Of a stretch of DNA of 64,000 nt, positions 26,528 to 42,071 are shown one piece after another (the stretch's first letter is position 1; every line of letters starts with the position of its first letter). The stretch lies in the NCBI GenBank assembly GCA_046483985.1, contig JAWOCD010000016.1:34704-98703 (forward strand), written 5' to 3'. The translations under genes and the position numbers were made by a program. The notes beneath the pieces were generated by a model. The model was not told the DNA's origin, did not search any database, and worked only from the letters and a program-made list of their open reading frames with translations. The stretch comes from Promethearchaeia archaeon (lineage in GTDB: Archaea; Asgardarchaeota; Lokiarchaeia; Sigyniarchaeales; SOKP01).

Positions 26528-26634
26528 GCCTCAATAGCTCAGCTGGTAGAGTGTTGCCTTGGTAAGGCAAAGGTCGGGGGATCATAGCAATTCATGAAGC
26601 AATTCGCTTCAGTGGGATAAACCCCCTTGAGGCT
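26528..26634 (+). tRNA. tRNA-Thr(GGT) with one T-loop intron (~26587-26620, position ~59/60)
   Basis: Acceptor GCCTCAA/TTGAGGC; anticodon arm TTGCC-TTGGTAA-GGCAA; T-stem GGGGG/CCCCC split by a 34-nt hairpin insert. Confidence 0.9.
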
Positions 26635-26649
26635 CTATTCATATATCAT

Positions 26650-26816
26650 GCCGGCGTAGCTTAGCTGGTTATAGCGCCAGACTCATAATCCTTCTGAAAA
26701 AAGGGTCAGACAGGATGTAAACGGAAGTCGCTAAGGCTCCCAGATGGACTCTGGAGGTCAGGGGATCATAGGAAATGGAGCATTTCGCTCTCTCCGATTA
26801 AACCCCCTCGCCGGCA
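26650..26816 (+). tRNA. tRNA-Met(CAT), elongator type, with a 61-nt insert at 38/39 (26689-26749, probably two tandem introns) and a T-loop intron (26770-26801)
   Basis: Acceptor GCCGGCG/CGCCGGC; anticodon stem CCAGA/TCTGG; BHB helices TCAT/ATGG and GATC/GATT. Confidence 0.88.
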
Positions 26817-31620: not shown

Positions 31621-31852
31621 TGTTAGGGCTTCTTAATATTTCGTTAGGATATTTATTTATTTATTTATTTATTGCGGTATTGGAACATTCAAATAAGGAA
31701 GTATATGGAGGCATATTTCGTGGGAAAACTTATGGTATATTTATCACTTATTCTTCTACTAAAAAAATTTATAATAGATTTTTGATTTTAATAGTTATCT
31801 TATTTATTTAAATACAAAACCGTGTTAAGAATAAATAAGAGAATGCAACGGT

Positions 31853-32046
31853 GCCAAGGTGGCGTAGCCCGGAGTATTCTGGATTAACCCAAATATGGGT
31901 AAGAACGCACCAGTATATCTTGGATTTCTAAGATATGGTGAGACTGAAGATCTGGGTATCGAGAAAGCCATTTCATTTCGATTGGTTTCGAAAAGGTTCA
32001 AATAATAAGTGCTTTTCGCACTTGCTTGGACGTCCCTCCCTTGGCA
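31853..32046 (+). tRNA. tRNA-Phe(GAA) with four introns (31873-31902, 31914-31942, 31964-31994, 32003-32032)
   Basis: Removing four BHB-bounded inserts gives the 74-nt cloverleaf GCCAAGG TG GCGT AGCCCGGGA ACGC A CCAGA CTGAAGA TCTGG GTATC GAGGG TTCAAAT CCCTC CCTTGGC A. Confidence 0.9.
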
Positions 32047-39649: not shown

Positions 39650-39755
39650 TGGTGGCCTTGGGAGGATTTCCGCGAGAACACGAGAGGTGTCCTTTTTTCG
39701 AACCCCCGATAGCCCAGTCCGAAGCCGGGTGCCTTATCCACTAGACTACAAGGCC
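39650..39755 (-). tRNA. tRNA-Arg(TCG) with a 30-nt intron at 59/60 (39667-39696); CCA encoded
   Basis: GGCCTTG/CAAGGCC acceptor; CCCGG-CTTCGGA-CTGGG; BHB helix TTCG/CGGA. Confidence 0.92.
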
Positions 39756-41932: not shown

Positions 41933-42071
41933 TGGCGCCCACAGCGGGAATCTCATAAAACGGCGAACTGCTGCTTTTATTTTGAACCCGCGTCGTAGGA
42001 GTGACAGTCCCAAATGCTAGTCCGGGGTTTGCCATGTATAGAATTTATACGAATGTCTACACTATGTGGGC
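41933..42071 (-). tRNA. tRNA-Asp(GTC) with two introns (15/16: 42027-42056; 59/60: 41950-41980); CCA encoded
   Basis: GCCCACA/TGTGGGC acceptor; TGGGA-CTGTCAC-TCCTA; BHB helices TTCA/TGAG and TGT/GCA. Confidence 0.9.

Follow-up and report, generated by a model that had tools for sequence, protein, structure and literature searches.

A tRNA-Phe(GAA) gene of 194 nt is located at positions 31853-32046 of the window (the whole stretch of DNA that was analyzed, 64,000 nt in length). The host belongs to the Lokiarchaeia (Promethearchaeia), to a family of 135 species, and its assembly (G000) comprises 4.06 Mb in 128 contigs at 97% completeness. The gene consists of five exons (20, 11, 21, 8, and 14 nt) and four BHB introns of 30, 29, 31, and 30 nt, 120 nt in sum, that interrupt the tRNA at 19/20, 30/31, 51/52, and 59/60 (position numbering includes 17a). 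It is bordered by a 411-aa ORF on one side and a convergent 173-aa ORF on the other, and the ORF downstream also adjoins several orthologues. The locus harbors the following features:

31807-31814, + strand: putative TATA-like element TTTAAATA upstream of tRNA-Phe, inside a 9-bp inverted repeat (31798-31806 / 31832-31840)
31853-31872, + strand: exon 1, positions 1-19 with 17a; 5' strands of acceptor and D-stem, and D-loop up to G19
31873-31902, + strand: intron 1 at 19/20, 30 nt; central helix GCCC/GGGT (4/4 pairs), intron helix of 5 bp, exon-side helix absent
31903-31913, + strand: exon 2, positions 20-30, 11 nt; contains the last bulge base of BHB1 as well as central helix and bulge of BHB2
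31914-31942, + strand: intron 2 at 30/31 (anticodon stem), 29 nt; central helix CACC/GGTG (4/4 pairs), intron helix of 10 bp
31943-31963, + strand: exon 3, positions 31-51; anticodon GAA and variable loop
31964-31994, + strand: intron 3 at 51/52 (T-stem), 31 nt; relaxed central helix ATCG/CGAA (3/4 pairs, A-A mismatch), intron helix of 6 bp
31995-32002, + strand: exon 4, positions 52-59, 8 nt
32003-32032, + strand: intron 4 at 59/60 (T-loop), 30 nt; central helix TTCA/TGGA (4/4 pairs), 7-bp hairpin
32033-32046, + strand: exon 5, positions 60-73; last base is the discriminator A73, no encoded CCA

At all four BHBs, two 3-nt bulges flank the central helix, and the cut is predicted after the second bulge base. 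Coordinates, lengths, and boundaries agree with the original prediction, which had been made from the letters of the gene and had described 120 nt of intron in 194 nt; its BHB reading also holds, with fully paired central helices in introns 1, 2, and 4 and a relaxed one in intron 3. In exon 4, one base is the last of the bulge of BHB3, one is a spacer, and the remainder provides the central helix of BHB4 plus two bases of bulge. At least 7 nt are needed for an exon to accommodate two neighboring BHB cores next to each other, and exon 4 exceeds this by one base. The TATA-like box may be the promoter element of the gene. The inverted repeat around it is mostly conserved in three relatives (G002, G006, G014) and possibly represents a regulator site or a leader hairpin.

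The joined exons, one of them only 8 nt long, yield the 74-nt tRNA that had been foreseen: ARAGORN identifies the product as tRNA-Phe(GAA), 21/21 stem pairs are formed, and the conserved bases (U8, A14, G18 G19, U33, the T-loop UUC, A58, and A73) are present along with the GAA anticodon. When the 16 possible intron subsets were run through ARAGORN, Phe was obtained solely with all four introns removed; the other 15, i.e. the alternative splice patterns, gave no tRNA or a spurious one and were discarded. A split or permuted tRNA gene is excluded, the five exons being colinear and on one strand. The unspliced gene was detected neither by ARAGORN nor by Rfam RF00005, which bears out the expectation that standard scanners miss it.

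An intron-aware tRNA profile scanner was written for this work and trained on intron-less tRNAs, no Phe included. Applied blindly to the 4.06-Mb genome, it placed the same four boundaries in tRNA-Phe with a score of 87, the best noise reaching at most 34. The genome scan revealed 46 tRNA genes, which account for 44/46 standard archaeal anticodons and further include Sec and a second Cys; together they contain about 42 introns, i.e. ~0.9 per gene. tRNA-Phe is the most interrupted of them; no other gene exceeds two introns, unless a stacked insert in tRNA-Met is counted as two, which makes three. An intact tRNA-Phe elsewhere, the possibility raised with the original prediction, was not encountered: no second tRNA-Phe(GAA) was found among the 46 genes of this 97%-complete draft. 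An ARAGORN call of Phe(AAA) on contig C50 is in fact Arg(UCU) with a D-loop intron. Genes for Ala-UGC, Arg-CCG, and Ile2(CAU) were not found by the genome scan.

Several other tRNA genes of this host are interrupted as well. Within the window, the elongator tRNA-Met(CAT) (26650-26816, + strand) carries a T-loop intron and a 61-nt anticodon-loop insert made of two stacked units, 26689-26720 (32 nt, 3/4 pairs) and 26721-26749 (29 nt, 4/4 pairs after removal of the first), and thus probably has three introns. ARAGORN missed tRNA-Thr(GGU) (26528-26634, + strand; one T-loop intron), tRNA-Arg(UCG) (39653-39755, - strand; one intron), and tRNA-Asp(GUC) (41936-42071, - strand; two introns, at 15/16 and 59/60). 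Elsewhere in the genome, a tRNA-Ile with a UAU anticodon (G000:C17:70440-70594) harbors two introns of 29 and 51 nt, and a tRNA-Tyr on contig C116 shows a 46-48-nt anticodon-loop insert, for which the best BHB (35/36) leaves a 6-nt loop and a cut at 37/38 implies a relaxed motif. Two different tRNA-Cys(GCA) genes exist (contigs C30 and C37), one of which has an unusual D-loop and a T-loop beginning with UGC.

The gene was compared within a set of 78 tRNA-Phe genes from 74 genomes of the family, retrieved by a search that required an intact 15-nt 5' end and hence misses alleles differing there. Their mature sequences are nearly identical. Three orthologues (G060, G076, G077) encode nearly the same mature tRNA without any intron (G060 differs at 4/74 positions), and two more (G114, G141) combine an identical mature sequence with a single intron. 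Precise removal of the four introns restores the sequence of the intron-less orthologues, and one intron-less DNA contig joins exons 1, 2, and 3 directly. The intron-less and partly interrupted orthologues therefore define the junctions independently of the BHB motif.

The motif itself is conserved by pairing. Among 178 orthologous Phe introns, the central helix has four pairs in 124 and at least three in 176, compared with four pairs in 1.4% of shuffled introns, and the 3' end of the intron changes in concert with the exonic half of this helix. The helix of intron 2 shows a compensatory change from CACC/GGTG to CACT/AGTG in G092, G105, and G122, and the relaxed helix of intron 3 has perfect ATCG/CGAT counterparts at 51/52 in G063 and G069. 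In G000, G006, and G014, which represent three genera, 74/74 exon bases are identical, and the four introns are homologous but drifting; the four-intron allele is therefore old. A metagenome contig likewise combines invariant exons with four diverged introns. Constant exons beside varying introns agree with purifying selection on the exons.

Removal of such introns requires an endonuclease and a ligase. A single EndA gene was found (alpha subunit; G000:C32:38230-38829, 200 aa), which matches both Pfam domains (PF01974, PF02778), aligns best with the catalytic subunit of Aeropyrum EndA (3p1z, E 3e-35), and has kept both the catalytic Tyr/His/Lys and the lysine-bearing loop at the N-terminus (ISKPR against VEKPR). 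Its nearest named homologues, at 76% identity, come from Promethearchaeia (Lokiarchaeia) genome bins. By these features, the protein would be of the broad-specificity type with an L1/CSL loop, a loop tied to cleavage of non-canonical and relaxed motifs; Asgard EndA is described as (alpha-beta)2 with an L1 loop (PMC5829648). A beta paralogue was not found in the assembly by PF01974, PF02778, phmmer, or tblastn with the second paralogues of three relatives; a weak match on contig C95 was rejected as an unrelated protein. Most family genomes show two matches to the EndA protein. RtcB is encoded by two full-length genes (contigs C37 and C66).

Assembled contigs from four RNA runs contained no spliced tRNA-Phe joint. 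The single match in an RNA library is a 234-nt contig from a salt lake, an unspliced relative of ~95% identity that may be a precursor or carried-over DNA and is therefore taken neither as support nor as a hint of habitat. The failure to find a spliced joint fits a pseudogene, i.e. a decayed tRNA with hairpin insertions whose working counterpart lies in unassembled DNA, as do the draft state of the genome with its 128 contigs, the two further anticodons (Ala-UGC, Arg-CCG) undetected in the scan, and the EndA beta subunit undetected in the assembly. However, a decaying gene does not agree with three genera that have all 74 exon bases in common despite drifting introns, with one mature sequence type in 74 family genomes, nearly always as one copy and interrupted in 75/78 cases, or with BHB enrichment far above the null. 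A pseudogene is thus judged extremely improbable. The locus is very probably a working tRNA-Phe(GAA) gene, present in a single copy, with four archaeal introns of the ordinary protein-spliced kind at non-canonical positions.

For this functional gene, a route of maturation can be proposed from established archaeal biology. A precursor of ~200 nt would be transcribed from the upstream TATA-like site; EndA, most likely as (alpha-beta)2, would cut each BHB twice, amounting to eight cuts; RtcB would ligate exons four times; and RNase P, RNase Z, and the CCA-adding enzyme would finish the ends. Each BHB must borrow exon bases of the cloverleaf, which argues for stepwise splicing. Folding models (ViennaRNA) place the state with all four BHBs forced together ~16 kcal/mol above the minimum-energy fold, single BHBs costing 1.3-5.5, and by these costs, stepwise splicing is likely. 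Intron 2 is predicted to be the best pre-formed BHB, and BHB1 is nearly missing from the predicted ensemble (p about 0.00-0.02). The cost of the intron 4 BHB falls from 4.6 to 2.0 after removal of intron 3, and that of intron 1 from 5.5 to 2.7 after removal of the others. Intron 2 would probably leave first, intron 3 ahead of intron 4, and intron 1 late, this exact order being a prediction of the folding models.

Across the family, the intron number per Phe gene ranges from none (3 genes) through one (15), two (29), and three (19) to four (12), with a mean of 2.26-2.28. Other tRNAs show lower means, 1.33 for Asp (n=27) and 0.95 for Arg-UCG (n=22); rank tests of this difference count related genomes as independent, and their p-values are left aside. 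The comparison covers Asp and Arg-UCG, since Trp and Met lack conserved 5' patterns in the family. Seven of the 12 four-intron genes share the position set of the host gene, and five use 15/16, 37/38, or 58/59 instead; the 19/20 site is occupied in 37/78 genes. No five-intron Phe gene was found in the 78 family genes or 14 metagenome matches. Apparent rows with five or six introns had false 3' ends and vanished after de-duplication.

Short exons recur (7 nt nine times, 8 nt seven times). Introns at 15/16 and 19/20 occur together once versus 10.4 times expected, and 58/59 and 59/60 never in the family Phe genes; sites whose BHBs would overlap thus exclude each other. A tRNA-Phe gene of G051 (L072) has introns at both 15/16 and 19/20, separated by a 5-nt exon, and its splicing must be sequential, because the helix of the second motif overlaps the bulge of the first.

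Close relatives differ in their intron sets. On a FastTree phylogeny of 70 genomes (MEMO1 and EndA), which did not recover the genus labels, intron presence requires 114 changes and is about as scattered as shuffled labels. Given the weak tree and the draft genomes, this scatter is consistent with turnover of intron sets in the family, short of proof.

Two kinds of explanation have to be weighed for the presence of these introns. One is that selection maintains them, e.g. because they hide the tRNA gene from integrating viruses or act as a gate on how the only Phe tRNA matures or becomes modified. The anti-integration idea, reportedly introduced by Randau and Soll in 2008, counts in its favor. 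Most two-intron genes of the host (Asp, His, Tyr, both Met) have no second tRNA to read their codons, and the 51/52 intron occurs solely alongside a 30/31 and a T-loop intron (15/15), but this co-occurrence may stem from shared ancestry. Moreover, some Phe genes of the family have no intron, the alternative sites, ten or more in number, are interchangeable, and viral contigs yielded no match to the Phe 3'-end pattern, i.e. none with it as an attachment site. Altogether, maintenance by selection is considered improbable. The 113 matches of a 15-mer, considered as viral attachment sites or donors, were rejected since they did not align as tRNA.

Most likely, the introns are tolerated passengers, gained and lost only where a BHB can form. 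A supplement to this reading is that they, being real, are part of a family of BHB mini-introns of ~30 nt that is actively mobile, passing from site to site and among tRNA genes and mRNAs, with Phe as a hotspot. Lengths are narrowly distributed (28-31 nt in 144/178 or 81% of Phe introns, 28-32 nt in 59/77 non-Phe introns), presence is scattered on the tree like shuffled labels, and the Phe load exceeds that of Asp and Arg-UCG. G024 (at 53/54) and G129 (at 59/60) have a similar core hairpin (75% identity). However, likeness of intron cores at the 70% level falls inside the shuffle range, G000, G006, and G014 share a four-intron allele that is old and stable, the tree misses the genus labels, contamination of draft genomes inflates the scatter, and a donor element was not found in viral contigs.

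Copying between tRNA genes bears on the same point. At least 80% identity across tRNA types is found for 2/40 host introns (5%, 0% after shuffling), and a recent preprint gives 28% for Thermoproteales, which counts against a mobile family. All four Phe introns stay below 80% identity to the introns of other host tRNAs. A trio of 59/60 introns in Lys(UUU), Thr(CGU) (both on contig C37), and Ala(GGC) (contig C99) is 73-80% identical, which speaks for mobility and is a candidate for T-arm copying or gene conversion. Judged from such likeness, copying between tRNA genes is weakly supported.

Inserts of this kind are also found in protein genes. The EF-2 gene contains a 30-nt strict BHB insert (G000:C115:48042-48071) with stops within the P-loop codons, removal of which restores AHIDHGKTT with its DHGKTT motif. 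An AMP-phosphorylase-like ORF on the minus strand of contig C32 (~12894 nt into the reverse complement) has a 30-nt BHB insert whose removal restores DKHSTGG. Both match the Phe introns in size and shape and favor mobility; sequences were compared for the C32 insert, to which the four Phe introns are 53-63% identical, no more than AT-rich hairpins, which argues against it. A strict BHB-hairpin scan of the whole genome gave 129 sites versus 143 in the reversed control, no enrichment by itself, and two ORF-rescuing matches, one of them convincing. A translation-GTPase match with one internal TAA (L406; G000:C40:2821-3414, - strand) is possibly a further case of an mRNA mini-intron.

In sum, an actively mobile family is given close to an even chance, just short of it. 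The fuller proposal, that tRNA-Phe in this 135-species family is a hotspot of one still-active ~30-nt BHB mini-intron class, quickly gained and lost, packed to the steric limit (7-8-nt exons), and invading essential mRNAs such as EF-2, is tentative, with the balance somewhat against it. If true, the enzymes that splice tRNA would serve close relatives of eukaryotes as a general intron system without a spliceosome, and ongoing intron gain could be caught at the Phe locus. As a single gene, tRNA-Phe of this host is of modest importance; what interest is left comes from turnover at the Phe locus across the family and the possible link to mRNA mini-introns. A multi-intron Phe gene also shows how tRNA-Phe can seem "missing" from Loki genomes.

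To our knowledge, tRNA genes of Thermoproteales carry at most three introns each, and the original prediction had placed four introns at or beyond this archaeal limit. This claim fails, because four- and five-intron Asgard tRNA genes have already been published: four introns are tabulated for Ile2(CAT), Arg(TCT), and Leu(GAG) of Freyarchaeia and Trp(CCA) of Atabeyarchaeia-2 (PMC11291895, Supplementary Data 4), and in a preprint, as many as five intervening sequences are given for an individual Asgard tRNA gene (Goswami et al., 2026; bioRxiv 10.64898/2026.10.13.758758). In three Asgard genomes, 92-95% of the tRNA genes bear introns, and Phe has three of them in both Atabeyarchaeia genomes (Valentin-Alvarado et al., 2024; PMC11291895). 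The tRNAs of Atabeyarchaeia and Freyarchaeia resemble the host Phe in having several non-canonical BHB introns per gene, in being missed by standard annotators, and in repeated gains and turnover. The host tRNA-Phe is thus a member of an already described class of multi-intron Asgard tRNAs. No paper on a four-intron tRNA-Phe in Lokiarchaeia was found in the literature searched, which covers few subscription journals and excludes the tables of the preprint.

The preprint describes repeated gains, BHB enrichment, and no general arrival route, and treats splicing in Asgard as lacking experimental proof (Goswami et al., 2026). Lokiarchaeia, the class of the host, are absent by name from its main text. 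Its focal families reach 2.2 introns per gene and non-focal Asgard families 0.91, compared with ~0.9 in the host, where Phe is an outlier. The 28-31 nt of the Phe cluster in the host family differ from the medians of 22-23 nt given there.

Thermoproteales (Pyrobaculum, Thermofilum), as far as they are covered by the sources at hand, show non-canonical BHB introns in D-arms, anticodon arms, and T-arms as found here (Sugahara, 2008; Fujishima, 2010). Introns of their multi-intron tRNAs are cut by an (alpha-beta)2 EndA with a CSL/L1 loop, and their transposing intron families shared across tRNAs are common (the 28% mentioned above, at ≥80% identity) and rare in the host. The stepwise order proposed for the host Phe has a model in the three-intron tRNAs of Cyanidioschyzon merolae, in which BHB introns leave in order of BHB stability and position, as shown by RT-PCR (PMC3728597). 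C. merolae, however, is a eukaryote with up to three introns per tRNA, one usually at 37/38, a position not used in the host Phe (PMC3728597).

For protein genes, EndA-type introns have a precedent in systems described before as well as candidates in the present genome. The cbf5 pre-mRNA of Crenarchaeota contains a BHB intron; this concerns one gene, whereas Loki genomes apparently harbor many protein genes with inserts. With the host gene, four-intron tRNAs are extended from Frey-, Atabey-, and Jordiarchaea to Lokiarchaeia, and the 78 orthologues, with a near-fixed mature sequence and 0-4 introns at about ten sites, represent a test system for intron arrival and BHB packing that bears on the arrival question left open in the 2026 preprint.
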